Source: Candidatus Shapirobacteria bacterium
GTDB lineage: Bacteria > Patescibacteriota > Microgenomatia > UBA12405
Direction: 5' to 3'
NCBI GenBank assembly: GCA_041659325.1
Contig: JBAZYN010000002.1
Coordinates: 206,082-270,081, forward strand
Length of the DNA stretch: 64,000 nt
Within the stretch, counting starts at the first letter, position 1; each line of letters begins with the position of its first letter. Shown here one piece after another: positions 3,437 to 60,142 of this stretch. A program made the translations under genes and the position numbers. A model generated the notes under the pieces. The model saw only the letters and a list, made by a program, of their open reading frames with translations, was not told where the DNA came from and did not search any database.

Positions 3437-3439
3437 AAG

Positions 3440-4540: not shown

Positions 4541-4567
4541 GGAATATCTGATAAAGTTAGTGTGTAG

Positions 4568-7983: not shown

Positions 7984-8056
7984 AATGCGACCGAAATTGA
8001 TAAGGGGACGATTGAAGATGCCTTTTTGAACAGGAAGAAATTAAGAAATCGGGAAA

Positions 8057-28651: not shown

Positions 28652-28662
28652 TTAAGTATAGA

Positions 28663-28724
28663 GTCTGAAAGTCGGAAAGTCGAAAGTCTAAAAGCCATGC
28701 CTGCCGGCAGGCAGGTCTAAAAGT
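28663..28724. repeat. GTCNAAA ('KSESLK') repeat plus palindrome GCCATGCCTGCCGGCAGGCAGGTC in intergenic spacer
   Basis: gtctgaaagtcggaaagtcgaaagtctaaaagccatgcctgccggcaggcaggtctaaaagt. Confidence 0.8.
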
Positions 28725-28738
28725 AATAAAGTAGAAAA

Positions 28739-32792: not shown

Positions 32793-32826
32793 GTGGTCAA
32801 AAGGATAAAGTAAACGAGTCTAAAAG

Positions 32827-32862
32827 TTAAAAGTCTAAAAGTCGAAAGTATGAAAACATCAA
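32827..32862. repeat. GTCNAAA repeat overlapping the ppdK start codon
   Basis: gtctaaaagttaaaagtctaaaagtcgaaagtatgaaaac. Confidence 0.7.
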
Positions 32863-35597
32863 AAACAGAAAAAATGAAAAAATACGTCTATTTTTTTGGT
32901 AGTGGAAAAGCCGAGGGTGACAAGGATATGAAGTTTATATTGGGCGGAAAAGGGGCAAATTTAGCGGAAATGACAAACTTGGGGATTCCGGTACCGGCGG
33001 GTTTTACGATTTCAACTGAAGTTTGTAAATATTATGCAGAAAGTCTCAAAGTCGAAAAGTCCGAAAGTCTCAAAGTCGAAAAGTCTGAAAGTCTGAAAGC
33101 CGGAAAGTCGGAAGACAGATATCCGAAGGGGCTGGTAGAAGAGGTTGAGGAAGTACTGAAGAAACTGGAAAAAAATACGGGAAAAAGGTTTGGGGATGCA
33201 AAAAATCCGCTTTTGGTATCGGTTCGGTCCGGAGCAGCCGCCTCAATGCCGGGGATGATGGATACTATTTTAAATTTAGGTCTTAATGATAAAGTGGTGG
33301 CGGGAATGATTGAAAAAACCGGAAATGGGCGGTTTGTGTGGGATTCGTACCGAAGATTTATGCAGATGTTTGGCAATGTAGTCGATGGGGTGGAGCATGA
33401 GAAGTTCGAGCATGTGATAACTGAGGTTAAGGCCAAAAAGGGGATAAAGGCCGATACGGAAATGAAAGCCGAGGATTGGCAAGAGGTGGTATCGGGTTAT
33501 AAAAAGATTTACAGAATTGAGAAAGGCAGCGAATTTCCCGAAGATGCCAAAGAGCAGATGTGGCGGGCAATTAATGCGGTTTTTGGGTCGTGGAATAACC
33601 CTAGGGCCAATGTTTACCGCCAACTAAATAAAATCGATGAAAAGAAAATATTTGGGACGGCCGTGAATGTGCAAAGCATGGTGTTTGGAAATATGGGTGA
33701 TGACTGTGGGACGGGGGTGGCATTTACCCGAAATCCCTCAACCGGAGAAAACAAAGCTTACGGAGAATATTTGATGAATGCTCAGGGAGAAGACGTGGTG
33801 GCGGGAATAAGAACGCCAAAGCACTTGGAGTCCCTGAAGGAAGATAACGAGAAGGTGTATGCCCAGTTGATCAACATCTTTGAGAAGTTGGAGAAGCATT
33901 ATAAAGATATGCAGGATGTGGAATTTACGATTGAAAATGGAAATTTGTTTATCCTGCAGACTCGGAACGGCAAGAGAACGGCAGCGGCCATGGTTAGAGT
34001 GGCGTGTGATTTGGTAAAGGAAGGGTTGATTGACGAAAAGACGGCCTTGGTTCGGGTTGAGGCTGACAAGTTAGATCAGTTACTTCACCCGACATTGGAT
34101 GCAAAAGCCAAGGCAAATTTTAAAGTAATAGCCAAGGGGTTACCGGCTAGTCCGGGAGCAGCTTCGGGAAAAGTGGTGTTCAATGCCGAGGCGGCAGTTG
34201 AAGCCAAAGAAAAAGGAGAGAAAGTAATACTGGTTCGTCAGGAAACAAGCCCAGAGGACATTTCGGGAATGAATGCAGCCCAGGGGATTTTGACGGCCAG
34301 GGGCGGGATGACTTCTCATGCGGCAGTAGTGGCCAGAGGTATGGGTAAATGTTGTGTGTCTGGCGCTGAGAACGTAATAGTGCTAGAAGCAGGAAAGATG
34401 TTTAAAGTAGGTGATTTGGTGGTAAATGAGGGGGACATAATAACTCTGGATGGAGGAACAGGCGAAGTGCTTTTGGGCCAAGTACCGACAATGGCGCCCG
34501 AGTTATCGGGATATTTTGAGCAGATTATGAAATGGGCGGATAAGTATCGAAAATTGGGAGTAAGAACCAATGCAGATACACCCAAGGATGCAAAGACAGC
34601 CCGGGAGTTTGGGGCGGAGGGGATCGGGCTTTGCCGAACCGAACATATGTTCTTTGCCGAGGATAGGATTTTTGCGGTCCGCCAGATGATTGTGGCGGAT
34701 ACTTTGGAGCAGAGGGAAGTGGCTCTGAAAAAGATTTTCCCAATGCAAAAAAATGATTTTAAACAATTGTTTGAAATTATGAGGGGGCTGCCGGTGAAAA
34801 TAAGATTATTGGATCCACCGCTTCACGAATTTTTACCTCAAAAGAAAGAGGATGTTGAAGCTTTGGCCAAAGAGATGGGAATAACTACCGAAAAATTGCA
34901 GGAGAAAATAGATTCTTTGCATGAGTTTAATCCAATGATGGGACACAGAGGCTGTAGATTGGGAATTACTTTCCCGGAGATTTTTGTGATGCAGGTAAAG
35001 GCAATAATGACAGCCGCCTGCGAGGTGTCAAAAGAAGGGCAGACACATCGGTCTGCCCATACAATCAAGCCGGAAATCATGATTCCGTTGGTGGGTGATG
35101 TGGAAGAATTGAAGTGGCTTAAGGTCAGATTGGTTCCGGCAATTGAGGAAACCATGAAAGAGATGGGGGTAAAGCTTGACTATGAGATTGGGACAATGAT
35201 TGAGATTCCGAGAGCAGCAGTAACGGCTGATGAGATTGCGGTAGAGGCTGATTTCTTCTCGTTTGGGACGAATGATTTGACCCAGATGACCTATGGATTT
35301 TCGAGAGATGATGCCGGAAAGTTTTTGAAGGATTATATCAGCCAAAAAATATTGGTGGAAGATCCTTTCAAGAGCGTTGATCAGGTGGGAGTAGGTAAAT
35401 TGATGAAAATGGCAGTAGAGCTTGGTAGGGGAACTAAAAAGCATCTGCACGTAGGGATTTGCGGTGAGCAGGGCGGAGATCCTGATACTGTAAAATTTTG
35501 CCATAGAATAGGACTAGATTATGTATCCTGTTCGCCTTATCGGGTGCCGATTGCCAGATTAGCAGCAGCTCAGGCGGCGGTGGAAGAAAAGAAATAA
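32850..35597 (+). CDS. ppdK: pyruvate, phosphate dikinase
   Basis: PEP-utilising phosphohistidine domain GGMTSHAAVVARGMGKCCVSGA. N-terminal ATP-grasp and C-terminal PEP/pyruvate domain (ICGEQGGDP). Carries an in-frame insert ESLKVEKSESLKVEKSESLKAGKSE encoded by the GTCNAAA repeat at 33041-33115. Confidence 0.9.
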   Translation: MKTSKTEKMKKYVYFFGSGKAEGDKDMKFILGGKGANLAEMTNLGIPVPAGFTISTEVCKYYAESLKVEKSESLKVEKSESLKAGKSEDRYPKGLVEEVEEVLKKLEKNTGKRFGDAKNPLLVSVRSGAAASMPGMMDTILNLGLNDKVVAGMIEKTGNGRFVWDSYRRFMQMFGNVVDGVEHEKFEHVITEVKAKKGIKADTEMKAEDWQEVVSGYKKIYRIEKGSEFPEDAKEQMWRAINAVFGSWNNPRANVYRQLNKIDEKKIFGTAVNVQSMVFGNMGDDCGTGVAFTRNPSTGENKAYGEYLMNAQGEDVVAGIRTPKHLESLKEDNEKVYAQLINIFEKLEKHYKDMQDVEFTIENGNLFILQTRNGKRTAAAMVRVACDLVKEGLIDEKTALVRVEADKLDQLLHPTLDAKAKANFKVIAKGLPASPGAASGKVVFNAEAAVEAKEKGEKVILVRQETSPEDISGMNAAQGILTARGGMTSHAAVVARGMGKCCVSGAENVIVLEAGKMFKVGDLVVNEGDIITLDGGTGEVLLGQVPTMAPELSGYFEQIMKWADKYRKLGVRTNADTPKDAKTAREFGAEGIGLCRTEHMFFAEDRIFAVRQMIVADTLEQREVALKKIFPMQKNDFKQLFEIMRGLPVKIRLLDPPLHEFLPQKKEDVEALAKEMGITTEKLQEKIDSLHEFNPMMGHRGCRLGITFPEIFVMQVKAIMTAACEVSKEGQTHRSAHTIKPEIMIPLVGDVEELKWLKVRLVPAIEETMKEMGVKLDYEIGTMIEIPRAAVTADEIAVEADFFSFGTNDLTQMTYGFSRDDAGKFLKDYISQKILVEDPFKSVDQVGVGKLMKMAVELGRGTKKHLHVGICGEQGGDPDTVKFCHRIGLDYVSCSPYRVPIARLAAAQAAVEEKK
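33041..33115. repeat. GTCNAAA ('KSESLK') repeat inserted in-frame in ppdK
   Basis: aagtctcaaagtcgaaaagtccgaaagtctcaaagtcgaaaagtctgaaagtctgaaagccggaaagtcg. Confidence 0.85.
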
Positions 35598-35795: not shown

Positions 35796-36377
35796 ATGAA
35801 AAAGGAGATGATTGTGAAGAAGCGCTATGTTTTGCTATTCGTCGCGCTGCTGGCTATGTTGGTGGTTGGGTGTGAGGTTACTCCGGGTGTTGCGCCTGCG
35901 CCTGTGCCTGCAGACACCCTCGAAGGGATGACTGAAGCGGAAGTCGAGGTTGTGCCGACGATAGTGTTGGTGCAACTGCCACTCGAGTCATTTCCGGACG
36001 ATGCACTCTGGAGTTTGACCGTGGAGATTGTAGACTCTACCGAGGGTACGGTTTGGGATGAGGCGCGAGGTCAGCGCAGATCTGGGGATTTTGCCATTTC
36101 TGTGTTTGGGTGGGAAAAAGGATATATTCTCTACCCTTGGGATGGGAATACCCGTATTGGCGCGGTGAAGCAGGTAGAGGTCGATTTTGGTCTTGTTCCA
36201 AGCATCCGTGAAGAGGATAAGACGTATATCACAGAAGCGCTTTCGCGGATTGCGGGGACCAACGATATGGGAATCCAAGACCTGGTGTGGAAGGTCACGA
36301 ATGCGACCTATACGGACGAAGGTCTAAGCATGAACCTGGTGTTCTTCTCTCTTGAGGGGAGGAAACCAGCGAACTAG
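35796..36377 (+). CDS. lipoprotein (lipobox VVGC) of unknown function; GC-rich, atypical codon usage, probable foreign origin
   Basis: MKKEMIVKKRYVLLFVALLAMLVVGC signal plus lipobox. The gene is visibly about 50%+ GC with GCG/CGC/CTG codons, against an AT-rich background. Confidence 0.55.
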   Translation: MKKEMIVKKRYVLLFVALLAMLVVGCEVTPGVAPAPVPADTLEGMTEAEVEVVPTIVLVQLPLESFPDDALWSLTVEIVDSTEGTVWDEARGQRRSGDFAISVFGWEKGYILYPWDGNTRIGAVKQVEVDFGLVPSIREEDKTYITEALSRIAGTNDMGIQDLVWKVTNATYTDEGLSMNLVFFSLEGRKPAN

Positions 36378-36525
36378 TTCGGCGGGCGCAGTCTGGCGTT
36401 AGGAGGTCCGGAAGAGGGCAAAGGAGAAGGTGGGAAGCGCTACGCTTTCTATTTTTGATTTTGTTTCTCTTCCGGGCCGGTGTGTGTGTTTTTCTTTTTT
36501 CTGTTTTAAAAAGATGATTTTTTAA

Positions 36526-37173
36526 TTGGGAAAAGAGAAAAAATTTAAATCACCCTTTTTTAACGCTCCCCTGTCAAGGGGAGCTGTCCGTAGGACTGAG
36601 GGGTTTGAGATTAAAACCCCTTTTGTGTTTAAACCCTGTCCTAACCTTTCCCTTGACAGGTCAAGGCATAATATGTCATCTTCTCCCTATCAAGAGGAGG
36701 ATTTAAAATTCAAACCCCTCTTGTATTCTCCCCTTGACAGGGGAGAAAATGGGACGGGGATGAAAACCGGTATTATTTTTGAGGCTAAAACTAAAAAATA
36801 TCATTTGAAATATAGGGATTCTTTAACATGGGCAGCAAAAAATAATCGTAAAAATGAAACAGAAAGTGAAAAATTATTATGGAATAAGTTATTGAGGAAA
36901 AAGAATTTAGGTTATAAATTTACCAGACAAAAACCAATAAACAGGTTTATCGTTGATTTTTATTGTTCTGAATTAAGTTTAGCTATTGAAATAGACGGTG
37001 ATTCTCATAACCTTAGGAAGGACAGAGATAGTCTAAGAGATAAATATTTATATACCTGTGGAATTAAAACGTTAAGAATAAGCGATAAGGATGTGATAAA
37101 TGATATTGGAAAAGTAGAAAAAGAAATTAATGAATTTATTAGATGCTCCCCTGTCAAGGGGAGCTGTCCGTAG
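36526..37173 (+). CDS. DUF559 (Vsr-like endonuclease fold) domain protein; true start probably near 36760 (upstream part of ORF is repeat-encoded)
   Basis: LLWNKLLRKKNLGYKFTRQKPINRFIVDFYCSELSLAIEIDGDSHNLRKDRDSLRDKYLYTCGIKTLRISDKDV is the typical DUF559 core. Confidence 0.6.
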   Translation: MGKEKKFKSPFFNAPLSRGAVRRTEGFEIKTPFVFKPCPNLSLDRSRHNMSSSPYQEEDLKFKPLLYSPLDRGENGTGMKTGIIFEAKTKKYHLKYRDSLTWAAKNNRKNETESEKLLWNKLLRKKNLGYKFTRQKPINRFIVDFYCSELSLAIEIDGDSHNLRKDRDSLRDKYLYTCGIKTLRISDKDVINDIGKVEKEINEFIRCSPVKGSCP

Positions 37174-37187
37174 GACTGAGGGGTTTG
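36565..37187 (+). mobile_element. DUF559 gene bracketed by identical 43-bp direct repeats (gctcccctgtcaaggggagctgtccgtaggactgaggggtttg), with extra partial copies inside
   Basis: Copies at 36565-36607 and 37145-37187. Related hairpin fragments at 36640-36665 and 36722-36748. A homologous copy lies in-frame in leuS (56085-56180). Confidence 0.5.
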
Positions 37188-37249
37188 GAGGTAGGGTTTG
37201 CCGGTCGACAGGGGAAGGGTTTGGGGTAAGGTTCGAAGTGGGGGTAGAT

Positions 37250-38107
37250 TTAGGAACGTGTAACACTGCCATGCTTTGCTCGTAATGACGATTGGGTTTT
37301 GATGATGAAGATTAGTGCAGGGATAATCAGCAAAATCAGCAGGGAAAAAGGAAAGACAAAAAAGGTAGTAGAAAAGGACTTGGCGGAAATGGAGGGGTCA
37401 AAGTTGATGGTGGCGGTATAAGCACCCGGCCAAAAGGGAGGGGAGATGGTACAACTTTCCTGGCACTGGAGATTACGGCGGTGGTTTGAAAGGACATTGA
37501 GAGGGCTCAGCTCGATTCTTTTGATGACGAGGCCATTTTTGGAAATAGTAAGGTCACCGATAGTTTTAAAATAGAAGCCGGAGTCATTTCTAATTTGAGC
37601 CGAGAAGGTAACAGGGGTGAAGAAAATATCTTTTATTTTTGGGGTGGCTTTAAAGTTATCAACAGAAATATCGGTGGCGGGGTTTTCGGTTTGGGAAACG
37701 GAGAGAAGGATATGAGACCCGATTTTACCCGAAGTTCCGGAAAAAGAACCAGAGGTAGCAGAGGTTTGTCGCTGCGAGATAAAAAAGGTGTAGTAATAAT
37801 CACCAAGGTTGGCATCGGGGGCAACTTCAATTTTGAGGACAAGTTGACGGGTGGATTTTGGCATCAGGACAAAGGGGCTATCAAGCCGGTTATCCTGATT
37901 GGTTAGGGAAAACTGAAGGTAATTGGTGGAAGCGACGTTGTCGTAGGTGACGGAACCGTCGGGTCCGGTTGGTTTCCAGGGGAGGACAGAGGCGTCGACG
38001 GCAAGGCTGGTGTTGGAGTTATTGGTGACGTTATAAACCTGAGTAATGACACCACCGGGGAGAACGACGAATTCGGTTTGGGCTGGTTTTAGGGTAATAT
38101 CAAACAT
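37250..38107 (-). CDS. hypothetical protein with C-terminal TM anchor
   Basis: C-terminal FFVFPFSLLILLIIPALIFIIKT. No N-terminal signal is evident. There is a 2-bp gap to the upstream gene. Confidence 0.45.
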   Translation of the reverse strand: MFDITLKPAQTEFVVLPGGVITQVYNVTNNSNTSLAVDASVLPWKPTGPDGSVTYDNVASTNYLQFSLTNQDNRLDSPFVLMPKSTRQLVLKIEVAPDANLGDYYYTFFISQRQTSATSGSFSGTSGKIGSHILLSVSQTENPATDISVDNFKATPKIKDIFFTPVTFSAQIRNDSGFYFKTIGDLTISKNGLVIKRIELSPLNVLSNHRRNLQCQESCTISPPFWPGAYTATINFDPSISAKSFSTTFFVFPFSLLILLIIPALIFIIKTQSSLRAKHGSVTRS

Positions 38108-39878: not shown

Positions 39879-40914
39879 ATGGATGGTAATGGCGGGATTG
39901 GTATTGGTGGGAATGGGGGTGGTTTCGATGTACAAGTTTATAAATAAGGATAGTTTGATTGGGGTAATAAATCAAAGTTTGCCGCCGCGGGAGGCGGGAT
40001 TGTTGGCCGGAATGCTTCTGGGGGATAGAAGTGGGTTTGAAAAAGATTTTTGGAAAGACTTAAAGGTGTCGGGAGTGGTGCATTTGGTGGTAGTGAGCGG
40101 GACAAATGTGGTGTTATTAAGCAGCTTATTGATTGAAAATTTGGCCCAATTTTTGGGGCGGAAAAAGACAATTGTGGGAGTATTGACTTTGGTATGGGGG
40201 TATGCCGGGATGGTAGGGTGGGAACCACCGGTAATCAGGGCAGTTTTGTTGGTCTCGATTTTATATTGGGCGCAACTTTTGGGAAGAAAATTCGATGTTT
40301 GGAGAAGTTTGATTTTGGTGGTAGCGATGATGGTGATTGCTGACCGGACAATGATTGGTGGGGTTAGTTTTTGGCTGTCGTTTCTGGCGTTTATTGGAGT
40401 AATAAGTCAATTACGAATTAACAATTACGAATTACGAATTAAAAATAAATATATATTAAATATGGTTGGTAATTTTATCACGACGGTGTGGGTGAGCTTG
40501 TGGATTACGCCGGTGATGGCAATGGTGTTTGGAAAAATTAGCCTGATATCGCCTTTTACAAATCTTTTGGTAATGTTTTTGGCGGAAACAGTATTTGTTG
40601 TGGGCGGAGTGGGGGTGGCGGCGGGGTTGATTTGGCCGTTTTTGGGCGAGGTGGTGTTGATATTAATTTTGCCCCTGTTGAAATATTTTGTAGTGATAAC
40701 GGAGTGGATGGGGAATATGAAATGGGCGAGTTTTGAAGTGAAATTTAATTGGTTGATGTTGGCGGGGTGGTATTTGATTTTGGGGTGGTTTTTGTTAAGA
40801 AGAAAGGGCGGACACGCCGGTCCGCCCGTACAGAAAATCGTGGGGGCGGGCCCAATTGATGCGCCCCCACAGAATAATGTAGGGGTCGACCGGGGTGTCG
40901 ACCCAAAAGGATAA
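39847..40914 (+). CDS. comEC: ComEC/Rec2 N-terminal part (DUF4131 + Competence TM domain); C-terminus is read-through into REP-like repeat
   Basis: LLAGMLLGDRSGFEKDFWKDLKVSGVVHLVVVSGTNVVLL...VLLVSILYWAQLLGRKFDVWRSL is the competence-domain motif. It carries an in-frame ATTACGA insert (QLRINNYELRIKNKY). The tail KGGHAGPPVQKIVGAG is encoded by the GC-rich hairpin repeat. Confidence 0.7.
   Translation: MKKLRTRSLSEWMVMAGLVLVGMGVVSMYKFINKDSLIGVINQSLPPREAGLLAGMLLGDRSGFEKDFWKDLKVSGVVHLVVVSGTNVVLLSSLLIENLAQFLGRKKTIVGVLTLVWGYAGMVGWEPPVIRAVLLVSILYWAQLLGRKFDVWRSLILVVAMMVIADRTMIGGVSFWLSFLAFIGVISQLRINNYELRIKNKYILNMVGNFITTVWVSLWITPVMAMVFGKISLISPFTNLLVMFLAETVFVVGGVGVAAGLIWPFLGEVVLILILPLLKYFVVITEWMGNMKWASFEVKFNWLMLAGWYLILGWFLLRRKGGHAGPPVQKIVGAGPIDAPPQNNVGVDRGVDPKG
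40409..40442. repeat. ATTACGA heptad repeat in-frame inside comEC
   Basis: caattacgaattaacaattacgaattacgaatt. Confidence 0.8.
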
Positions 40915-41620
40915 AAATGATATTTGGAAATAGAAAATCAATTAGATTGAAGGGATATGATTATTCGATGGGTGGGTATTATTTCGTGACGATATGTACG
41001 CAGGATAGGCGATGTTTATTTAGGGCGGACACCCGCCAGAGGCGGGTAGGCGTCGTCCGTCCGTACACGGAAATAAATGATATTGGAATTATGATGGATT
41101 ATTGGTGGAACGAATTGTCTAATCATTTTGATAATAAAATTAATTTGGATGAATACGTGATTATGCCTAATCATATACACGGAATAATTGTGATTAAAAA
41201 TATTAATAAGGGCGGACACGCCGGTCCGCCCGTACAGAAAATCGTAGGGGCAGGCCGATGTGCCTGCCCAAATGATCCGCCCGTACAGAAAATGGTAGGG
41301 GTCGACCGATGTGTCGAACCAAATGATGCACCCGTACAGAAAATTCCCATTAAATTAGGAGATGTTATTCGATGGTTTAAAACAATAACCACCAATGAAT
41401 ATATTAAGGAAAGAACATTAAACAATTGGCCGAAATTTGATAAGCGAATTTGGCAAAGAAATTATTATGAAAGGATTATCAGAAATGAAAAAGAATATAT
41501 AAAGGTCAAGAATTATATTAAGGCAAACATGTCTACCGGTGGGCAGGTTTTGTGACAATATGTACGCAGGATAGGCGATGTTTATTTAGGGCGGACACAC
41601 CGGTCCGCCCGTACAAAATT
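40806..41620 (+). mobile_element. RAYT/IS200-like element: Y1 (HuH) transposase gene flanked and interrupted by REP-like hairpin repeats GGGCGGACACGCCGGTCCGCCCGTACA
   Basis: Hairpin copies at 40806-40832, 41023-41069 (variant), 41210-41236, 41270-41295 (half), 41328-41345 (half) and 41589-41615. Additional GC hairpins at 40842-40870 and 40877-40908. Confidence 0.65.
40917..41555 (+). CDS. IS200/IS605-family Y1 transposase, REP-associated tyrosine transposase (RAYT)-like
   Basis: RLKGYDYSMGGYYFVTICTQDRRCLF...YVIMPNHIHGIIVI (HuH motif HIH)...EYIKVKNYIKAN (C-terminal Tyr region). REP-encoded in-frame inserts (KGGHAGPPVQKIVGAG). Confidence 0.7.
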   Translation: MIFGNRKSIRLKGYDYSMGGYYFVTICTQDRRCLFRADTRQRRVGVVRPYTEINDIGIMMDYWWNELSNHFDNKINLDEYVIMPNHIHGIIVIKNINKGGHAGPPVQKIVGAGRCACPNDPPVQKMVGVDRCVEPNDAPVQKIPIKLGDVIRWFKTITTNEYIKERTLNNWPKFDKRIWQRNYYERIIRNEKEYIKVKNYIKANMSTGGQVL

Positions 41621-41631
41621 AGGAATAATTT

Positions 41632-42450
41632 ATGAAAATTAAAATATTATTAGTAGTTAGCCTGATAGGGCTGGGAATTTGGTGGTGGGTTAACAGGCCA
41701 AACAATAATTTTAAAATGGTGTTTTGTGATGTCGGTCAGGGGGATGCGGCACTGGTGGTTTATGGTAATTTCCAGATGCTTATAGATGCAGGTCCCGAGA
41801 ACAGAAAGGTATTGAATTGTTTGGAGGATAATTTGCCGTTTGGGGATAAGCAACTGGAGTTAGCGGTAATAACCCACTGGGATTTGGACCACGCCGGTGG
41901 TATAAGAGATGTTTTGAATTATTACAAGATTGAAAAAGTGTTTTCCGGCACTAAACCGGAAGCGGGTTTTGAACAAATAAATTATACAGGTAATTTAAAG
42001 AGCGGTGATGTCATCAAATATGGATTGATGAGTTTTGAAATACTGTCAACGGAGGGAGTTGAGGGAAAAGGAGAGGATGAGGATAACGCTAATTCGGTGG
42101 TTGGGGTGTTAAGTTATAAGGACTATGTGTTTTTCATGATGGGAGATGCGCCGTTGGTAGTGGAGCAAAGACTGGTGTGGAGACAGATAGTCGAAAAGTC
42201 TCAAAGTCTTAAAGCCTCAAAGTCTGAAAATCTGAAAGTAGTATTAAAGGTGAGTCACCATGGGTCGGATACGGCTACGGGCGAGGAATTGTTGGAAGCG
42301 GTAAAGCCGAATATGGCGGTAGTTAGTGTGGGAAAAAATAATTTTGGGCATCCGGCGGAGGAGGTGATAAAAAGGCTTAACGAGAGGGGGATACAGATAT
42401 TAAGAACTGATATGATGGGGGAGATAGAGTTTGTAATCAGTAATCAGTAA
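41632..42450 (+). CDS. comEC: ComEC C-terminal metallo-beta-lactamase domain (separate ORF downstream of RAYT insertion)
   Basis: TM then MLIDAGPEN...AVITHWDLDHAGGIRDV...VSHHGSDTATGEELLEAVKPNMAVVSVGKNNFGHPAEEVIKRL. In-frame GTCNAAA insert (KSQSLKASKSENLKV) at 42190-42240. Confidence 0.65.
   Translation: MKIKILLVVSLIGLGIWWWVNRPNNNFKMVFCDVGQGDAALVVYGNFQMLIDAGPENRKVLNCLEDNLPFGDKQLELAVITHWDLDHAGGIRDVLNYYKIEKVFSGTKPEAGFEQINYTGNLKSGDVIKYGLMSFEILSTEGVEGKGEDEDNANSVVGVLSYKDYVFFMMGDAPLVVEQRLVWRQIVEKSQSLKASKSENLKVVLKVSHHGSDTATGEELLEAVKPNMAVVSVGKNNFGHPAEEVIKRLNERGIQILRTDMMGEIEFVISNQ
42190..42240. repeat. GTCNAAA repeat in-frame in comEC MBL domain
   Basis: gtcgaaaagtctcaaagtcttaaagcctcaaagtctgaaaatctgaaagt. 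Confidence 0.8.
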
Positions 42451-43668: not shown

Positions 43669-43968
43669 GTGGACAAGTGGAGACAGAGAATTCATAGATT
43701 AAGTATGAACCAACTAAAAGCGTTGGGGGTGTTGGCGGCGAGTAAAAACGGGATTGTGGAAGCATTGGAATCATCGGGTAATTTGCGTTTATACGGAAAA
43801 GCGTTGGGAGGAGTATTTTCGTCGCTGTCGCGACAAGTTTTGAACGGTCAGCATTTGATCGAGGCCTGGGGTCGTGTCGAACGCGGTAGGGGGTTGAGGT
43901 GGAAGCTGAACTTGGAAGCAATTAGTCAGCGGGAATTGAAAAAAGCGGTAGAGGAGGTACTGGGGTGA
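43669..43968 (+). CDS. small hypothetical protein, stop overlaps start of giant gene (ATGA)
   Basis: 99-aa ORF. The 4-bp overlap suggests translational coupling. Confidence 0.3.
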   Translation: MDKWRQRIHRLSMNQLKALGVLAASKNGIVEALESSGNLRLYGKALGGVFSSLSRQVLNGQHLIEAWGRVERGRGLRWKLNLEAISQRELKKAVEEVLG

Positions 43969-46900
43969 AATTTATCAATTACGAATTACGAATTACTAAT
44001 TACGAATTTAAAAAAATAGTAATTGTTCTGGTTTTGTGGGCGGTGGGATTGGGGGTGGGGTTAATTGGTGGGAATTATTGGTGGAATAATCGAAATGAGG
44101 TGTCGGCGGCAGACAGGGTGTTGACGACAACGGCAGATTTTGACGGGGGAAGATATATGAACATGGAGGCGGATTCAAAACAGGGGCAGCTTAAGTTAAA
44201 GGCTGACGGCTCCTGGGGGCCGAGAGTTTTTACGGTGCCCAACGTTAATTTGGGAAATGAGTCGCCGATAGCTTCGGATGGAAATTATATATATGTGATA
44301 GCTAGTGCGGATAATTATTTTGCCAGGTATATACCGGCGGAGGATAAATGGGAAACTTTGGCATCGGCACCTCACTATGCATATCCCGGTTCGGATATGG
44401 TGGTTTTGGGTGATTATGTATATGCGGTCTTTGGGGGATACCAGCGGGAGTTTAGCCGATATTCGATTGTCAATGACACCTGGGAGGAGATGGCAATGCT
44501 ACTGGATATAACATATGGAGGGACATCGCTGTCAACTGATGGGAATGAGATTTATTGTCTGCGGGGACATAATACGAATGATTTTTGGAAATATGATGTG
44601 CAAGCGGACAGGTGGACTCCGATTGGTAGTACTCCTTTGACGATCAGGTATGGAGCTGATTTGTCATATAGCAGTGAAACCAATAAAATGTATACCCCGA
44701 GGGGTAATAGTTCAAACGTTTTTTATATATATGATTTGGGAACAAGTATCTGGTCGATAGGACCAACATTGCCGGAGACGATGACCGAGGATAGCAACAG
44801 CGATATTGGCGGAACCGTGATTTATGTGCCCAGAGGAATCGGGACAAGTACTTTTTGGGCATTTAACGTGGGAACTACGCAGTGGAGTATTTTAACGGGA
44901 ACTCCCCAGATAACCAGATATGTGGGAGCGGTTTATAATGCGGCGGAAGACAAGGTTTATGTATTTAGGGGCAACGGAACCCCCGACTTTTGGAAATATG
45001 ACCCGGGGGCCAATAGCTTTCCGGGACCAACAGATTTGCCGGCGGCACCGGGGACGGGGTCGGATTTGATATATTCCGATGGATATTGGTATTACAATCG
45101 CGGAGGGACGACGGCAATGTATAGGTATAATGGGGCAGTGGGAGCGACTTGGCAGACAATGGCGGTGGGCTCATCGGTATTTTCGTCGGATACAAAAGGG
45201 GTAGCGGTAAATGGACTATTATATTATCTTCAGGGAGGTGGGGCAAGAAACTTTTTCAGCTTTAGTCCATCGGTGGGGGTGGGAGGAAGCTGGGGGACTT
45301 TGGCGACAATACCGGCGGCGATAGCACCAAATTATGGGGCGGGATTGGCATACCCAGGGAGCGGTGATTATATTTATGCTACCCGGGGAGTCGGAACCAG
45401 AACGTTTATGAGATATGATATGCCCGGCAATGTTTGGAGTGATGTTGGAGTGACGGATTTACCGGATGATGCAGAGGCGGGATATGGGTCGCGGATTATT
45501 GGAGTGGGAACGACGGAATTGTTTTATATTGCCGGAAACGGGGTTGCAAAATTTTTAAAATACAATATTACCAGTGATGCCTGGACGGTGTTGGGAAATT
45601 TGCCATTCTCTCCGTATTATGGGACAGATATGACATATTATGGTGGAAAGATGTATTTCCAGGCGGGATACTACAAGAGGGATATTTGGGAATATACGTT
45701 GGCAACAGGTGAGTGGAGACGTCTGGCGGATATTTCCGGATACAATGCGTCTGATAGCGGGCCTTATAACGGAGGATCGTTGGAGTCGGACGGGGCAGGG
45801 AATTTGTATTCGATTAATGGGGCGAATGTTTTGTGGATCAGAAGTTACTCGATAGGGAGCAGTAGGTATCCGGGTGGGGGGAGTTGGAATTCCGGGACAA
45901 TTGATTTGGAATATGCGGCGGGTTGGTCGGGAATAAATGTGGGAAAGACAACCCCCGGTGATTCGTCGGTGTCGGTGTATACCAGAAGTAGTAGTAACCA
46001 GACTAGTTGGTCGCCATGGCAGGAGGCGGTGGGGATGGGGATCTCCAGCCCCATAAATAGATACCTACAAATAGGAGTTTCGATGCATTCTTCAAGCGGG
46101 GGGAGTGAGACACCAATAATTAATGATATTACGGTGAGTTATATTGGGGATACCGGAGTGCCGACTAATCCGACGTCGATTAGCGGTTTGTCACAGCAGG
46201 TCGCCGGAGTAGGATTAACTTCCGGGCAGAGCTATTCTTATAACCAACCGTATTTTGATTGGAGTGGGGGGGGAGACACAGAAACATCGGTGGCAGGGTA
46301 TTATGTGTATTTTGGGACCGGAACAACGGCGACGGTCGACCCGGCGATCAGCGGCAGCTATCAGACGGACTCTAGCTATTTGGTAACAATGCCGATGCAA
46401 ACCGGGACTTATAGTTTGTTGATTAAAACAAAAGATCTGGGCGGGAATGTAAGCAATACTTGGCAGGCATTTGTGTATGTTTATAACGGAGTATCTCCTT
46501 TTATAAGTTTTGCTCAAGCGTCGACGCCTGAATTTTCGATAGGGACAACGGCGGGGGTGGATATTAGCAATAATAGAATCAGACTGATGGGGACAAGTGG
46601 GTTTTGGGAACAGGAGAGGTTGAGCTTGTTACAGGCTAATGTTACGGTTGGTAACGGGGGCGATGTGGCGGTAATGGGTAACAAGCTTTATATTATGAGA
46701 GGTAACGGAGGAAAGGAATTTTCTATTTATGATTTGTCTACCGATGTAGTATCGGTGGGACCGACAATGCCGGCAACGGTGGCGGCCGGAGGAGCTTTGG
46801 TAGAAGGACCGCCTGGGTATTTGTATGCTATGAGAGGAGGAGGGACATCGACTTTTTGGAGGTATGACATTGGGGCTAGTCTGTGGTCTGATGCTTTGGC

Positions 46901-49900: not shown

Positions 49901-51197
49901 TTCGACCAATGAATGTAGTGCCCCGTCCGGGACAGTGAGCTATAAGCCGGACGGAAAGTGGAAGGTAGCCCCGACAATGACGGCTAGCCCGTCGGCGACG
50001 ATTAAAACAAAGTCGGCAACAATAAGTTGGTCGACAAACAGAACCAGTAATTCGTTTGTAAAATACGGAAAGACATCGGGGACTTACGGGGAAGAAGTGG
50101 GATCGTCTGACCAGGTATCGTTGCACGAAATTACTTTAACCGGATTGGACCCGGGAACGACGTATTATTATATTACTCAATGGACTGACGAGGATGGGAA
50201 TACCGGATCTTCGGCCGAGCTGAACCTGACGACTAATGCGGCACCATTTGTGTCGGCAGTAAAAGTGGTAGATACCGGATTGTACTCGGTCTATGTGGAG
50301 TTTAATTTAAGCAATGCAACAACGGCGACGGTGCAGTACGGGAAAACAATAAGTTACGGAGGGGTGCAAACGGTAACAACATCCCGGGAGGCGAGTAGTT
50401 ATACGGTAAAAATAGAGGGATTAGACGAGGGAACGGAATATCATTTGCGGATTGCCGCCAATGACGAGGAGGGTAATACTTTTGCTAGCGATGACTATAC
50501 CTTTGAAACATTGCCGGTACCAAAGATTAGCGGGGTAAAAATTCAGCAGGTCAAGGGTATGCCGACGGCGACGGTGCGGTTTTTATGGAAGACGAATACC
50601 GGAGTCAGTTCAATTATTACCTATTATCCTGAAGGAAGGGCGGAAATGGCCCGGGATCAAATATCGTTGCCTTTGACGTTAAATCATGAAATGATGATAA
50701 AAGATTTGTTGGATGATACGCCATATGTGTTTGTAATAAAGGGGAAAGATGTGATAGGAAACAGCGCTGAGCCCAGTCCTCAGAAATTTACAACATCGAC
50801 TGATTTGAGGCCGCCATCTATTTCTAACTTAAGACTAGAGGCTTCGGTGGCCGGGGTAGGCGAAGAGGCGAAAGCGCAAATTACTTTATACTGGGATACC
50901 GATGAGCCGTCGACGGCTCAGGTGGAGTACGGAGCCGGGACCGGATCTGATTATCCGAGTAAAACTCAGAAAGATGTGATTATGGTAATGAACCACACAG
51001 TAACAGTGACGGATTTGGCGCCGGGGCAGGTATACCACTTGCGGGTTTTGGCAGAGGATAGGGTGCAAAATTTGACAATGTCCTATGATAACGTGGTGAT
51101 TACACCAAAGGCGACCAGATCAGCCCTGGATTTGGTGGTAGAAAATTTGTCAAAGAGTTTTGGATTCTTTAATAATTTGTCGCAAGTAGCTAAATAA
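43965..51197 (+). CDS. giant (2410 aa) membrane-anchored surface protein with many Kelch-type beta-propeller blades and C-terminal FN3/PKD-like domains
   Basis: N-terminal TM. Dozens of repeats of the form YxxxG..x(F/Y)xxYDxxxxxW (e.g. DKVYVFRGNGTPDFWKYD). FN3-like segments (SATISWSTNRTSNSFVKYGKTSGTYGEE...HEITLTGLDPGTTYYY). The N-terminus KFINYELRITNYEF is encoded by the ATTACGA repeat. Confidence 0.7.
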   Translation: MKFINYELRITNYEFKKIVIVLVLWAVGLGVGLIGGNYWWNNRNEVSAADRVLTTTADFDGGRYMNMEADSKQGQLKLKADGSWGPRVFTVPNVNLGNESPIASDGNYIYVIASADNYFARYIPAEDKWETLASAPHYAYPGSDMVVLGDYVYAVFGGYQREFSRYSIVNDTWEEMAMLLDITYGGTSLSTDGNEIYCLRGHNTNDFWKYDVQADRWTPIGSTPLTIRYGADLSYSSETNKMYTPRGNSSNVFYIYDLGTSIWSIGPTLPETMTEDSNSDIGGTVIYVPRGIGTSTFWAFNVGTTQWSILTGTPQITRYVGAVYNAAEDKVYVFRGNGTPDFWKYDPGANSFPGPTDLPAAPGTGSDLIYSDGYWYYNRGGTTAMYRYNGAVGATWQTMAVGSSVFSSDTKGVAVNGLLYYLQGGGARNFFSFSPSVGVGGSWGTLATIPAAIAPNYGAGLAYPGSGDYIYATRGVGTRTFMRYDMPGNVWSDVGVTDLPDDAEAGYGSRIIGVGTTELFYIAGNGVAKFLKYNITSDAWTVLGNLPFSPYYGTDMTYYGGKMYFQAGYYKRDIWEYTLATGEWRRLADISGYNASDSGPYNGGSLESDGAGNLYSINGANVLWIRSYSIGSSRYPGGGSWNSGTIDLEYAAGWSGINVGKTTPGDSSVSVYTRSSSNQTSWSPWQEAVGMGISSPINRYLQIGVSMHSSSGGSETPIINDITVSYIGDTGVPTNPTSISGLSQQVAGVGLTSGQSYSYNQPYFDWSGGGDTETSVAGYYVYFGTGTTATVDPAISGSYQTDSSYLVTMPMQTGTYSLLIKTKDLGGNVSNTWQAFVYVYNGVSPFISFAQASTPEFSIGTTAGVDISNNRIRLMGTSGFWEQERLSLLQANVTVGNGGDVAVMGNKLYIMRGNGGKEFSIYDLSTDVVSVGPTMPATVAAGGALVEGPPGYLYAMRGGGTSTFWRYDIGASLWSDALAMDTLQQTNSGAAMVYDEGNYIYALKGNGDDTFMRYDASIDNWEVMANNVVFGAPENQADNLVNLGGDLAYDVGTSRVYAIQGNLRTGFAVYDVNADSWSQLPNLPALSYYGARIEYDSGTGAVFYIPGWDKPFLYKYDVGEQVWTKISDAPAGLGYGANLRKVGGYLYVTRGASTTTIYKYNIAKNSWVVPSWNLFGGWWRGSDSRTFADGADIIRGDGNNMYIFRGNYDNLFVKYNATTGEVTKLTDVPAGIFRGSELVYDSVNNKIYASTSIYDKKFMVYDIATDEWSQVVGSGGTMPTDAGEGSSLVFDGSEYIYRLRGGNTQTFHKFSVNTGLWSTLPNTPRAMQYGSDLEIYNSNYYATRGAGTTEFFMFNPTLGVWSSSPAIARLPTGMTFNYDGFLVKGASDKMYGCRGGNTADCFVYSVISNTWTYIGTSMPANLTYGGAGAINQTGDKMYVIAGAGTNTYSNGLYSYVISTDNSSVGESGTFISGAHDLGEVFRYANLEVGYSAAPNTTLMVWTRTSDDGVGWGSWVQASSEKQIGSDFYYRIGSTAKRYIQVRFDLASGDKMYSGTIYDYKINYYQDSAPPTNPTIISAFDNGGMGSTLVSGTFYATTAPYFDWPGVGETGAAGDGNGGSGVNGYYVYFGLGETANPVSGAGTTYTIATAHTGTGMTTGNLYYLRLKAKDEAGNVASEVGTTFVFGYDGSPPTNPTTITADPPGYTATNSFAFSWSGAGDTGAGVEGYYYKTGSVGATEVFTTDSNVAGIAAYQTGTNTFYVRTKDLAGNVSEYTTSSYYWSSTAPGAPRDLRLTYPDVGTSNTVNEFAFAWSSPDPETYFGQLSGLRYYYSFNETPSVSNVNEVGLAVTYLSKGAYATRRDTNTLYVVAMDEAGNIDYRNRASIDFEASTSAPGTPGDIDISDVSIKESSAWRLALTWDTPVATGSGVSMYKVYRSTTTGAVCTSDFSDFEYASSTTGVSYVDIGLTQVKYYYCVKACDSTNECSAPSGTVSYKPDGKWKVAPTMTASPSATIKTKSATISWSTNRTSNSFVKYGKTSGTYGEEVGSSDQVSLHEITLTGLDPGTTYYYITQWTDEDGNTGSSAELNLTTNAAPFVSAVKVVDTGLYSVYVEFNLSNATTATVQYGKTISYGGVQTVTTSREASSYTVKIEGLDEGTEYHLRIAANDEEGNTFASDDYTFETLPVPKISGVKIQQVKGMPTATVRFLWKTNTGVSSIITYYPEGRAEMARDQISLPLTLNHEMMIKDLLDDTPYVFVIKGKDVIGNSAEPSPQKFTTSTDLRPPSISNLRLEASVAGVGEEAKAQITLYWDTDEPSTAQVEYGAGTGSDYPSKTQKDVIMVMNHTVTVTDLAPGQVYHLRVLAEDRVQNLTMSYDNVVITPKATRSALDLVVENLSKSFGFFNNLSQVAK
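43977..44009. repeat. ATTACGA heptad repeat encoding the N-terminus of the 2410-aa protein
   Basis: caattacgaattacgaattactaattacgaatt. Confidence 0.85.
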
Positions 51198-51232
51198 TTA
51201 ATTACGAATTATGAATTACGAATTACGAATTA
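51198..51232. repeat. ATTACGA heptad repeat at giant-gene stop / ABC-gene upstream
   Basis: taattaattacgaattatgaattacgaattacgaatt. Confidence 0.85.
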
Positions 51233-51242
51233 AAAACTAAAA

Positions 51243-52064
51243 ATGTATCAGCGAACAGGACAAGGAGAGGCAATACTGAAGGTAGAAGAGGTGAAAAAGA
51301 ATTTCTACATCGGGGGACAGGATTTGCCGGTGCTAAAGGGGATAACCTTACAGGTTAACCGGGGGGATTTTGCAATAATTTTCGGGCCGTCAGGGTGTGG
51401 GAAATCAACCTTGTTACACGCTATTTTGGGGATGGAACCGCCAACCTCGGGCAAAGTATGGATTGACGGAGTGAATTTGTACAATATGGACGAAGACGAG
51501 ATTGTCCGACATAGAAAAGAGAGAATCGGGATTGTTTTTCAGCAATCGATTTGGATAAAGTCACTAACCGTGTTGGAAAATGTAAGTTTCCCAAACAGGC
51601 TTAAAGGGATGAGCAAGGAGGAGGCGGAATCGTTGGCCTTGGAGACTCTAAAGTCAGTGACACTGGATAATTGGGCTCATCACCACCCTTCGGAACTGTC
51701 TTCGGGGCAGCAGCAAAGGGTGAGTTTGGCCAGGGCGTTGACGATTGATCCTTTGGTGATTGTGGCGGATGAACCGACGGGGAATTTGGATACGGTTTCG
51801 GGAGATGAGTTAATGGAATTGGTATCGGAGCTAAATACAAAAAGAGGGAAAACGGTGCTAATGGTGACTCACGACTTGGAATATTTGAGATACGCAAATA
51901 AGCTGTTTCATATAATTGATGGGGAACTAGTAGAAGAAGTGGACGGGAAGGGGGCGATGGAATTGGCACAAAAGTTGAAAAGTAAAAAAGGTCTGCGAAC
52001 GAGAACGACGGTTCGCGATAAGAATTTTTTAGTCAGTAATAAAGAAAAATATGTGGCAAAATAG
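51243..52064 (+). CDS. ABC transporter ATP-binding protein (MacB/LolD/FtsE-like)
   Basis: Walker A GPSGCGKST. Signature LSSGQQQRVSLARAL. Walker B IVADEPTGNLD. H-loop VTHD. Confidence 0.85.
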   Translation: MYQRTGQGEAILKVEEVKKNFYIGGQDLPVLKGITLQVNRGDFAIIFGPSGCGKSTLLHAILGMEPPTSGKVWIDGVNLYNMDEDEIVRHRKERIGIVFQQSIWIKSLTVLENVSFPNRLKGMSKEEAESLALETLKSVTLDNWAHHHPSELSSGQQQRVSLARALTIDPLVIVADEPTGNLDTVSGDELMELVSELNTKRGKTVLMVTHDLEYLRYANKLFHIIDGELVEEVDGKGAMELAQKLKSKKGLRTRTTVRDKNFLVSNKEKYVAK

Positions 52065-54180: not shown

Positions 54181-54186
54181 GAAAAA

Positions 54187-54250
54187 GAAAGTCTAAAAGT
54201 CTGAAAGTCTTAAAGTCGAAAGTTATAAAGTTCATAAAGTTTATAAAGAG
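54187..54250. repeat. GTCNAAA repeat (intergenic)
   Basis: gaaagtctaaaagtctgaaagtcttaaagtcgaaagttataaagttcataaagtttataaag. Confidence 0.8.
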
Positions 54251-54330
54251 GGGGAAAAAATAACGTCATTGCCACACTTCTTCCGGCAGAGGCGGACAAG
54301 CGCAATGGTGGGTAAACCGGCAGGCGGGTT

Positions 54331-59193: not shown

Positions 59194-59760
59194 GAATACT
59201 AACAGAGTATTGTAAGTATTTGGAGTATTTTTAGCAAAAAGGTTTTTGACTGCCAGACTAAATATATGAGTAAATAGTGCCTAATGTTTCGGATCTAGTT
59301 GATATGAAGTGGTTGATAGTTTGTGAATATTTTCGGATAATTATTGTTAGTCTAGGACTAATATTGCTTTGTGAACAATGTATATCACTTAAGAACATCG
59401 ATATTTTAGGCTTAGAGAATAATGTTTTGTGAAAATCAAAGCGGTGAAATAAGTGGTTTTGAAGGTAGAGGGAGCCCTTTTTTCAGAAATATAACTAGGG
59501 TGCGGTTATTAGGATGTAGTTAGGGTTTATATGATATATAAAGGTAAGGTTACCAGACACTCCTATTTGCGGATATGAAATTTTACCGAAAATATATTTT
59601 TGAGAGAAAAAGTAGAAGAGAAAGTGCGGGGAATAAGCGGTAAGGTGCGGAGATAGGGGTATAGTAGGTATAAAAGATGCGGTAAAATTGTGAAACGTAA
59701 TATCAGTTTAAGCTGATAAACGTTTCAACAACGTAAGTTCCTGAAAGGAACTGTACGTTG

Positions 59761-59832
59761 TGTCCCCACCGAGAATCGAACTCGGATCTGCTGCTTAGGA
59801 GGCGGCTATTCTATCCATTGAACTATAGGGAC
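59761..59832 (-). tRNA. tRNA-Arg (anticodon CCU); CCA not encoded
   Basis: Hand-folded cloverleaf on the minus strand. Acceptor GUCCCUA/UGGGGAC. T-arm CCGAG-UUCGAUU-CUCGG. Anticodon loop CUCCUAA. One C-A mismatch in the anticodon stem. Confidence 0.55.
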
Positions 59833-59850
59833 GGAGTAAAATAATTATAA

Positions 59851-59876
59851 ATTACGAATTACGAATTACGAATTGG
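59851..59876. repeat. ATTACGA heptad repeat between the two tRNA genes
   Basis: aattacgaattacgaattacgaatt. Confidence 0.85.
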
Positions 59877-59955
59877 TATCGACTAGATTTGTTATTTATT
59901 AAAGTTCTGCAGTGGGTGGTCGCCATCGCTTTGATAAATTTGCTACGGTGACCGA

Positions 59956-60067
59956 TGTCGGGGTTACTGGATTTCCCCCATTCGGGGGATAAACTTCTCA
60001 TCCAGTAACTTGGTCGGGGTTACTGGATTTCCCCCATTCGGGGGATAAACTTCTCATCCAGTAACTT
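59956..60067 (-). repeat. two tandem 56-bp units each starting with a copy of the tRNA-Pro 3' end (gtcggggttactggatt) followed by a hairpin-containing 39-bp tail
   Basis: Units at 59956-60011 and 60012-60067. The third occurrence of the 17-mer (60068-60084) is the genuine 3' end of tRNA-Pro. Confidence 0.7.
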
Positions 60068-60142
60068 GGTCGGGGTTACTGGATTCGAACCAGCAGCCTC
60101 AGCGTCCCGAACGCTGCGCGCTAGCCAATTGCGCCAAACCCC
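60066..60142 (-). tRNA. tRNA-Pro (anticodon CGG) with encoded CCA
   Basis: Minus strand. Acceptor CGGGGUU/AACCCCG (C1-G72, typical of bacterial tRNA-Pro). D-stem GCGC. Anticodon loop UUCGGGA. T-arm GCUGG-UUCGAAU-CCAGU. A73 then CCA. Confidence 0.75.

Follow-up and report, generated by a model that had tools for sequence, protein, structure and literature searches.

The DUF559 gene at positions 36760-37173 of a 64,000-nt stretch of Candidatus Shapirobacteria DNA (GenBank assembly GCA_041659325.1, contig JBAZYN010000002.1, positions 206,082 to 270,081; hereafter the window) encodes a small protein with a nuclease-like fold and lies between two inverted copies of a short hairpin unit. Hairpin units accompany DUF559 genes across phyla, related units are dispersed in the same genomes, and some of them lie in frame in leuS and other genes. 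In our best-supported reading, to which we give about an even chance, the locus is the home locus of a palindromic repeat family. It would form a system like that of the repetitive extragenic palindromic (REP) sequences, their doublets (REPINs) and the REP-associated tyrosine transposases (RAYTs), with a Vsr-fold DUF559 nuclease as its enzyme. More tentatively, we propose that a subfamily of DUF559 proteins are the dedicated nucleases of an unrecognised REPIN-like class of mobile palindromes in the Candidate Phyla Radiation (CPR), Cyanobacteria, Deinococcota and Neisseria, and probably in others.

The DUF559 locus and its hairpin units

A unit is defined here as a C/G-rich hairpin (in the window CTCCCCT-GTCA-AGGGGAG) followed by a variable middle and a G-box (in the window GAGGGGTTTG); on the opposite strand a C-box precedes the hairpin. 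The locus is made up as follows.

36565-36607, + strand: unit U1, a 100% match to U5, the 3' unit of the DUF559 gene; hairpin GCTCCCCT-GTCA-AGGGGAGC (36565-36584), mini-hairpin GTCC-GTA-GGAC (36586-36596), G-box GAGGGGTTTG (36598-36607)
36599-36621: junction hairpin AGGGGTTT-GAGATTA-AAACCCCT, in which the G-box of U1 is paired with the C-box of the next, inverted unit (tail-to-tail doublet junction)
36614-36663, - strand: unit U2, degenerate, inverted, of a second subtype (AAACCCTGTCCTAACCTTTCCCTTGACAGG...), kept in L008, the closest syntenic relative
36683-36709, + strand: unit U3, degenerate, forward (CTCCCTATCAAGAGGAG GATTTAAAAT); the orthologous copy in L008 is intact
36711-36747, - strand: unit U4, C-box CAAACCCCTC then hairpin TTCTCCCCTTGACAGGGGAGAA; inverted partner of U5
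36760-37173, + strand: DUF559 gene, 137 aa, Vsr-fold PD-(D/E)xK nuclease-like, inside open reading frame (ORF) 36526-37173
37145-37187, + strand: unit U5 at the 3' end of the DUF559 gene, overlapping its last nine codons and the stop codon
37178-37235, + strand: G-rich, telomere-like tail with repeated G-boxes (GAGGGGTTTGGAGGTAGGGTTTG...GGGGAAGGGTTTGGGGTAAGG); similar tails in L008 and L012

A sequence-only reading of the window had described identical 43-bp direct repeats around the DUF559 gene. The 43-mer (GCTCCCCTGTCAAGGGGAGCTGTCCGTAGGACTGAGGGGTTTG) does occur exactly twice in the window, as U1 and U5, both on the + strand, with none expected in a shuffled window. The partial hairpin copies reported upstream of the gene are also real and resolve into the degenerate inverted unit U2 and the well-kept inverted unit U4. 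U4 ends 13 nt from the ATG, its stem is complementary to both 43-mers at 18 of 18 positions, and a counterpart is found at the same position and in the same orientation in L008, L009 and L012. With U4 on the - strand and U5 on the + strand, the gene is enclosed by an inverted pair in the order C-box, hairpin, gene, hairpin, G-box. No copy of U1 was found in L008. The subtype of U2 also flanks P0038, a DUF559 paralog in L100.

Direct-repeat brackets of 30 to 140 nt are present in about one fifth of DUF559 loci. The bracket in L009 is of the same kind as that in the window (51 of 51 positions identical) and has a different middle module; with U1 being a 100% copy of U5 in the window, the flanks are thus identical within genomes and different between genomes. 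The direct repeat was rejected as the defining feature, since the inverted pair is the general geometry (see below). The best-supported model explains the 43-bp direct repeat by recent local copying, or by conversion, of the 3' unit of the DUF559 gene, with U5 as the probable master copy of U1.

The middle of a unit is nearly always a small palindrome, GTCC-GTA-GGAC in the window and unrelated palindromes of 10 to 20 nt elsewhere. Units start with (G/C/T)CTCCCC and finish with GAGGGGTTTG; they carry no GTAG or CGTC tag. In an alignment of twelve 42-nt units from nine genomes, 98.6% of cells are paired. The pairs covary (pair 1-20 is GC, CG or UA; pair 23-31 is UA, CG or GC), and none of 500 shuffles reached the score. 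Folded as single-stranded DNA, the 43-mer forms an 8-bp hairpin and a 4-bp mini-hairpin and leaves its G-rich end unpaired (-11.5 kcal/mol, z -4.1). The loop of the mini-hairpin is C-GNA-G in 11 of the 12 aligned units. C-GNA-G is an unusually stable DNA triloop, which hints, short of proof, that it is the DNA strand that folds.

The hairpins could instead work at the RNA level, as mRNA stabilisers, processing sites or autoregulatory sites, with the DUF559 protein binding or cutting RNA like the related RAP/FASTK proteins and the repeats spreading by other means; we consider this quite improbable. It would fit the hairpins at both ends of the gene's own transcript, the 3' one overlapping the stop codon, and the mitoribosomal (RAP-like) proteins with a TM-score of about 0.55 in the Foldseek list for the predicted protein structure. 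REP-type hairpins are known mRNA stabilisers (PMC3733652). The main hairpins, however, have no T-tail and do not look like terminators, a reading of them that we rejected; the only terminator-like hairpin of the region is the junction hairpin (36598-36622), which has a T-rich tail behind it. A permissive Rfam search of 36300-37400 gave chance-level matches only. Units in both orientations and several reading frames are a poor fit to a strand-specific RNA signal, and the C-GNA-G loops hint at DNA. An RNA role would also leave the G-box unexplained, as well as the presence or absence of the whole block and the deletions described below.

Three observations on the units stand apart from this argument. 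The base after the first hairpin (alignment column 20; C, A or G) covaries with the base before the G-box (column 33; T, A or G) in 11 of 12 units, and no Watson-Crick pairing is possible between them. Units that differ from that of the window at only 2 or 3 of 40 positions occur in metagenome-assembled genomes labelled Sumerlaeota and Gammaproteobacteria (L001 629-668 and L003 7837-7876), the L003 copy in frame in an RNase HII-like ORF. The L001 and L003 contigs have about 41-42% GC, as do the Shapirobacteria loci, and reflect either horizontal transfer or mis-binning. The G-box run 3' of the DUF559 unit resembles telomere repeats (GGGTTTG, GGGTTAGGG) in the window (37178-37235), in L012 (about 6395-6425) and in L008 (4542-4572).

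Association of hairpins with DUF559 genes and the encoded protein

We examined 80 metagenomic loci encoding relatives of the protein (35-66% identity) together with the syntenic Shapirobacteria loci, and scored 76 DUF559 genes and 383 control ORFs. Hairpins had to be perfect, at least 6 bp long and to contain CCC or GGG; the DUF559 zone comprised the gene with 300 nt on its upstream side and 150 nt on its downstream side. This zone has 2.36 hairpins per kb and the rest of the same loci 0.19 per kb (0.46 in other intergenic DNA, 0.115 in other coding DNA). Upstream hairpins accompany 57 of the 76 DUF559 genes (75%) and 24 of the 383 controls (6%; Fisher p 8e-37), and downstream hairpins 51 (67%) and 23 (6%), respectively (p 7e-31). 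Both sides carry hairpins at 38 DUF559 genes (50%) as compared with six controls (1.6%; p 5e-28). Where both proximal hairpins have a recognisable box, the flanks form an inverted pair in 23 of 24 scorable loci (p 3e-6).

Hairpin sequence differs between lineages. The upstream and downstream flanks are far more alike within a locus than between loci (Mann-Whitney p 4e-15 for inverted and 1.5e-7 for direct alignment). The type of unit that flanks a DUF559 gene is found again in the remainder of its locus at 0.039 per kb and in other loci at 0.002 per kb, a 19-fold difference. The same layout is present in the records of Pseudanabaena sp. ABRG5-3, Picosynechococcus PCC 7003, Synechocystis sp. 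B12, Deinococcus psychrotolerans and Neisseria gonorrhoeae. In D. psychrotolerans the DUF559 gene lies between paaD and paaZ within a near-perfect inverted pair of units, and the N. gonorrhoeae locus matches the protein sequence of structure 3hrl. That such repeats regularly flank DUF559 genes is borne out by most of the scored loci and by cultured cyanobacteria, Deinococcus and Neisseria. DUF559-like genes on viral contigs (at most 45% identity) served as a negative control: 5 of 59 have hairpins upstream, 3 of 59 downstream and 2 of 59 on both sides. A phage origin was rejected, as viral contigs hold distant relatives only, mostly without hairpins.

These controls disfavour coincidental hitch-hiking, in which repeats would gather in certain intergenic hot spots where DUF559, an unrelated nuclease of repair or defence, happens to lie, and the 43-bp identity would result from gene conversion or replication slippage. 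In its favour, many other short-repeat families with no relation to DUF559 populate this genome and likewise enter coding DNA, two copies at a distance of 580 nt could plausibly undergo gene conversion, and the DUF559 locus is vertically inherited. Coincidence would nevertheless have to account for the excess of two-sided hairpins over control ORFs and the roughly tenfold enrichment relative to other intergenic DNA, for an association that holds across phyla and with unrelated hairpin sequences, for the consistent inverted orientation, and for the scarcity of hairpins at phage-borne relatives. We regard it as highly improbable.

Two of the sampled arrangements are recorded here in their own right. 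In L075 (1-1872), DUF559 stands in a tandem array of three copies, one truncated, with the same pair of hairpin units between them; it is the sole multi-copy array seen. On the plasmids of Picosynechococcus PCC 7003 (L096) and Synechocystis B12 (L097), the DUF559 gene stands beside DUF1156 and DUF499 genes. The adjacent DUF1156 ORF of B12 has only 174 aa and may have been split by insertion.

The real start of the DUF559 gene in the window is taken to be the ATG at 36760, because homologs begin with MK(T/N)... in the alignment. The protein matches Pfam PF04480 (E 1.7e-27; 95.9 bits, cutoff 20.6) along positions 4-108 of the 109 in the profile, and 1778 homologs were detected. Residues D66, E77, D79, H83, D90 and R93 are invariant among 24 aligned homologs; conservation of acidic and histidine residues is expected of an active metal-dependent nuclease, and their catalytic role is putative. 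In the PDB, a profile of the 24 homologs matched 3hrl, which is N. gonorrhoeae NGO0050 (E 2.7e-22), and, at E 4.6e-4, the catalytic domain of I-Bth0305I, a homing endonuclease (3r3p). An AlphaFold2 model (predicted local distance difference test score 82) gave the same two top matches in Foldseek, 3hrl (E 6.6e-7, TM-score on target 0.84) and 3r3p (E 2e-4), with PvuRts1I and Vsr (1vsr, TM-score about 0.55) at lower ranks. Profile and predicted model thus agree on the Vsr/nuclease-like fold that had been proposed from the letters of the window. VSR, DUF559 and DUF2726 form one PD-(D/E)xK clade with repair and homing functions (Steczkiewicz et al., PMC3424549).

Other roles were considered for the protein. 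Vsr/Dcm repair was rejected: the Pfam matches are DUF559, MTES_1575 and DUF2726, not the Vsr model, and no methyltransferase gene is adjacent. A defence system was also rejected, since PADLOC gave weak partial matches only (DpdF, mREase_II and HEase, the last at 1.8e-4). NCBIfam returned a sub-threshold DUF559 model only, and family profile searches gave no match of the DUF559 protein to a Y1 (IS200-like) transposase.

The last nine codons of the gene (CSPVKGSCP) are encoded by U5. Nearly all inspected homologs share one end point of the conserved domain, behind which comes a tail encoded by a hairpin (CSPVKGSCP, PLPCQGKG, ALSREGVGEGF, LALSRERVRDRV, IPLLSKRG and others), and the hairpin sequence types differ between homologs. 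The over-extended annotated N-termini of many homologs consist of the same kind of hairpin-encoded peptides. A link between repeat and gene would explain such tails, which contaminate DUF559 gene models.

Dispersed units and their probable movement

A further related copy in the window lies in leuS, 19 kb from the DUF559 locus.

54681-57383, + strand: leuS, 900 aa, host of the doublet and of three other repeat-derived in-frame segments
56082-56121, - strand: left half of the leuS doublet, C-box CAAACCC then hairpin CCCTTGACAGGG
56133-56174, + strand: right half of the leuS doublet, 73% identical to the 43-mer; mini-hairpin GGCC-GAA-GGCC with a compensatory change

The two halves are separated by an 11-nt spacer, and the doublet folds into one long hairpin (-25.8 kcal/mol, z -3.7). 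Its configuration is that of the DUF559 block, with the spacer in place of the gene. The left half shares 24 identical nt with the 5' flank of the DUF559 paralog of L100. A related repeat adding codons to leuS had been noticed in the sequence-only reading; it is the inverted doublet 56082-56174, and the roughly 35 codons for residues 465-499 are an insertion relative to Thermus thermophilus LeuS (1h3n), exactly between the CxxC motif and GVVPVPEE. Alignment of orthologs confirmed the insertion. Among 54 close CPR orthologs, 29 have no insert at this site and about 20 have unrelated K/N-rich inserts, which makes it a variable loop. At the same position, LeuS of the window shares the doublet type with P0128 (60% identical) and P0125/L094 (65% identical), and hence with at least two other Shapirobacteria LeuS proteins.

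Pyruvate phosphate dikinase (PPDK) provides a second case. In L008 it contains a 28-aa in-frame doublet, the left half of which is identical at 36 of 38 positions to the unit beside the DUF559 start of that genome, 2.8 kb away. The same site is empty in L012, and in the window PPDK carries a different repeat family there. The LeuS and PPDK insertions are probably in surface loops of these essential proteins. Inverted doublets of 92 nt occur in L030. Other C/G-rich hairpins are denser in intergenic than in coding DNA (0.46 and 0.115 per kb), yet five of the ten full units examined lie inside long ORFs. Units of other genomes inside long ORFs occupy at least three reading frames and both orientations, and include the one in an RNase HII-like ORF.

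Presence and absence of the whole block was seen at an intergenic site. Contig JAPLYY010000069.1 (L100/L005) is syntenic with window positions 1897-9259, and the neighbouring proteins are about 80% identical. The site in the window is empty:

7984-8056: 73-nt spacer between genes 5953-7983 (+ strand) and 8057-9259 (- strand), with neither unit nor gene

At the orthologous spacer, L100 has a filled site with a C-box-hairpin unit, the DUF559 gene of P0038 (67% identical) and a hairpin-G-box unit. The filled and empty intergenic sites are too diverged to be aligned for a target-site duplication. The 3' unit of the L100 DUF559 gene (6466-6510) is 100% identical to a 45-nt copy at 8703-8747. L101, from another sample, is identical to L100 except that the 2.2-kb gene between these two units is deleted and one copy of the unit remains.

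Based on the logic of REP/REPIN-RAYT systems and on the related I-Bth0305I, we infer a mechanism in which the DUF559 protein would recognise the unit in its folded state (probably a hairpin of single-stranded DNA or a cruciform) and nick or cut at or beside it. Repair or replication would then copy units, preferentially near the gene, which would account for the extra copy 580 nt upstream with its 100% identity. Homogeneity of the units within a genome would be kept up by this copying, and identical units that are directly oriented would in addition be substrates for deletion or insertion of the DNA between them.

A homing-type selfish gene is an alternative that does not exclude this model. 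The DUF559 nuclease would cut empty doublets and double-strand-break repair would copy the gene in, the repeats being its landing pads. Several findings favour it, namely the similarity in sequence and fold to the catalytic domain of I-Bth0305I, the presence or absence of the whole block at an orthologous intergenic site, the position of the Deinococcus gene within the paa operon, and the geometry in CPR and Deinococcus, which puts the gene exactly at the spacer position of the gene-less leuS and PPDK doublets. On the other hand, in 16 of the 23 loci that could be scored the gene has the boxes turned towards it, which places it between doublets and not inside one. The gene is syntenic and apparently single-copy per sampled region, and the same genome keeps doublets without a gene. 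I-Bth0305I has extra DNA-binding domains that are missing from the DUF559 protein, and homing leaves the spread of the repeats, their homogeneity and their entry into coding DNA unexplained. We think homing unlikely as the account of the locus.

Several observations weigh against a REP/REPIN-RAYT-like system. Four Shapirobacteria genomes share the DUF559 gene near PPDK in synteny, at 70-84% identity, so that in this place it is inherited vertically, is not freshly mobile and does not obviously move. No consistent target-site duplication, which the sequence-only reading had suggested looking for outside the repeats, was found: there is none around nine single units and one candidate (GATAG...GATAG) at the PPDK doublet of L008. 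The flanks show two opposite geometries, with the boxes facing away from the gene in seven loci, including the window. Dispersed copies are sparse, about one per 26 kb in the sampled loci. No DUF559 gene was found within the roughly 8 kb searched around seven dispersed units of other genomes, and the dispersed units of L100/L005 are partly of another subtype than those beside its DUF559 gene. The protein, with 137 aa, has no separate DNA-binding domain. The LeuS of L094 keeps both hairpins by means of different sequences; the leuS doublet is therefore old, maintained by selection or by repeated homogenisation, which tempers any talk of spreading. Phylogenetic independence among the 76 loci is only partly controlled because the metagenomic loci come without taxonomy. 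The association could also arise from a gene that targets the repeats, or from gene and repeats sharing a niche.

Two earlier proposals thus stand in part. The idea of a small selfish unit of a nuclease with its own repeat holds in that the pairing is real and general and the block is present or absent at an orthologous site; its geometry is inverted, and near PPDK it is inherited vertically. The idea that the repeat alone is spreading into coding DNA agrees with the in-frame units in LeuS, PPDK and the RNase HII-like ORF, while the leuS doublet itself is old or maintained, not recent.

Comparison with known systems and other repeats in the window

The reading as a REP/REPIN-RAYT-like system draws on shared features. 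Both have short palindromic units in a genome-specific dispersed family, inverted doublets with a short spacer that fold into a long hairpin, and a cognate gene between inverted units that is apparently vertical and syntenic and not multi-copy. Vertical inheritance has been described for RAYT genes (Bertels & Rainey 2011, PMC3116915). The enzyme here is a Vsr-fold PD-(D/E)xK DUF559 protein, whereas RAYTs are HUH/Y1 IS200-like transposases; a G-rich box takes the place of the GTAG or CGTC tag; and many of the copies examined lie in coding sequence, in contrast to extragenic REPs, at a much lower copy density in the sampled DNA.

Rickettsia palindromic elements (RPEs), the main in-frame case in a review of MITEs (miniature transposable elements with inverted repeats), have no enzyme (PMC10969869). 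Compared by description, RPEs (about 90-150 nt) are likewise palindromic elements in frame in genes that include housekeeping enzymes, with several open frames and added surface peptides; they have no known partner gene, whereas a nuclease gene is consistently present here. I-Bth0305I (3r3p) shares the catalytic fold, detectable sequence similarity, the tie of a nuclease to selfish DNA and the presence or absence of a gene block. It differs in that the DUF559 gene is chromosomal and intergenic, with no intron, intein or phage context, in that the protein is a single domain without an added DNA-binding region, and in that the flanks are repeated hairpins and not two halves of a unique target site.

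Single-strand transposons of the IS200/IS605 type also have subterminal hairpins at both ends of a small gene, a hint that a DNA strand is recognised in folded form, and identical, directly oriented units nearby. Unlike them, the DUF559 locus has no Y1 transposase and no TnpB, and its end hairpins are mainly inverted. As in MITEs and transposons with terminal inverted repeats, the doublets and the gene-containing block end in inverted C-box/G-box units, but the only enclosed gene is DUF559 and there is no DDE-type transposase. An analogy to integron cassettes and attC sites was set aside, as there is no integrase and hairpins stand on both sides of the gene.

The untagged palindromic repeats of cyanobacteria, Deinococcus and others (PMC3733652) are likewise very short and mobile-looking and have no known enzyme; a review of REPs notes that no protein partners are known for them (Di Nocera et al. 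2013, PMC3733652). Judged by description, some of them may equal the sequences beside cyanobacterial and Deinococcus DUF559 genes. We know of no nuclease partner that has been proposed for these repeats. A description of the DUF559-repeat link was not found in the searchable literature, which leaves most subscription journals outside its coverage and in which the DUF559 papers are not about repeats. The system looks like an apparently undescribed counterpart of REP/RAYT, a repeat with its own enzyme.

For most short palindromic repeat families of bacteria other than REP/RAYT, no enzyme is known. The DUF559 family is very large and has a solved structure (3hrl), but likewise no known function. 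A reproducible cross-phylum link between repeats and family offers both a testable function. If our reading is right, it would give DUF559 its first function and bacteria a second, mechanistically different class of enzyme (PD-(D/E)xK, not HUH-Y1) that maintains short palindromic repeats. It would also name a source of in-frame peptide insertions in essential proteins, such as the LeuS and PPDK loops in reduced CPR genomes. Identical units also appear to drive kilobase-scale deletions in natural populations (L100/L101).

The remaining observations concern the surroundings of the DUF559 gene and other repeat families in the window. A promoter scan found nothing upstream of the gene, and the neighbouring ORFs 35796-36377 and 37250-38107 match no Pfam family. 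Tandem octamer repeats (AAAGTCNN) are found at 3264-3460, 28659-28715, 32798-32885, 33025-33143, 42164-42255, 54173-54259 and 57211-57275, some between genes and others in frame in PPDK (SLKVEKSESLKVEKSESLKAGKSE), LeuS (VESLKVLKSESKEE) and ORF 41632-42450. The PPDK loop that holds octamers in the window is the hairpin-doublet loop of L008 and is empty in L012. Two families of tandem heptamers (AATTACG and GTAATCN) are found at 40393-40462, 43947-44030, 51184-51253, 56991-57060 and 59827-59896, with further positions at 8414, 9044, 19349, 30486, 38770, 42432 and 54331. Both occupy gene boundaries, and the AATTACG family is also in frame in LeuS (INQLRINNYELRIEE), a feature common to LeuS P0123.

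The palindrome GCCATGCCTGCCGGCAGGCAGG with flanking AAAGTC repeats has four copies (3251-3307, 4581-4619, 28682-28738 and 54759-54815). A copy is in frame near the N-terminus of LeuS (KAMPAGRQV), in a loop that is empty in most orthologs. Another palindrome family, GGGCGGACACGCCGGTCCGCCC(GTACAG), is found at 8922-8970, 35035-35083, 40804-40852, 41208-41256, 41259-41307 and 41587-41635. One of its copies is in frame in PPDK (GQTHRSAHT), and L008 has a different, larger insert at that site. At 59960-60143, tRNA-Pro(cgg) (60067-60143, - strand) has behind it its own 3' end twice more, as tandem copies of 56 nt that each contain hairpin TCCCCCATTCGGGGGA, and tRNA-Arg(cct) (59760-59832) adjoins an AATTACG array. 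This tRNA region may be the remnant of an integration site.

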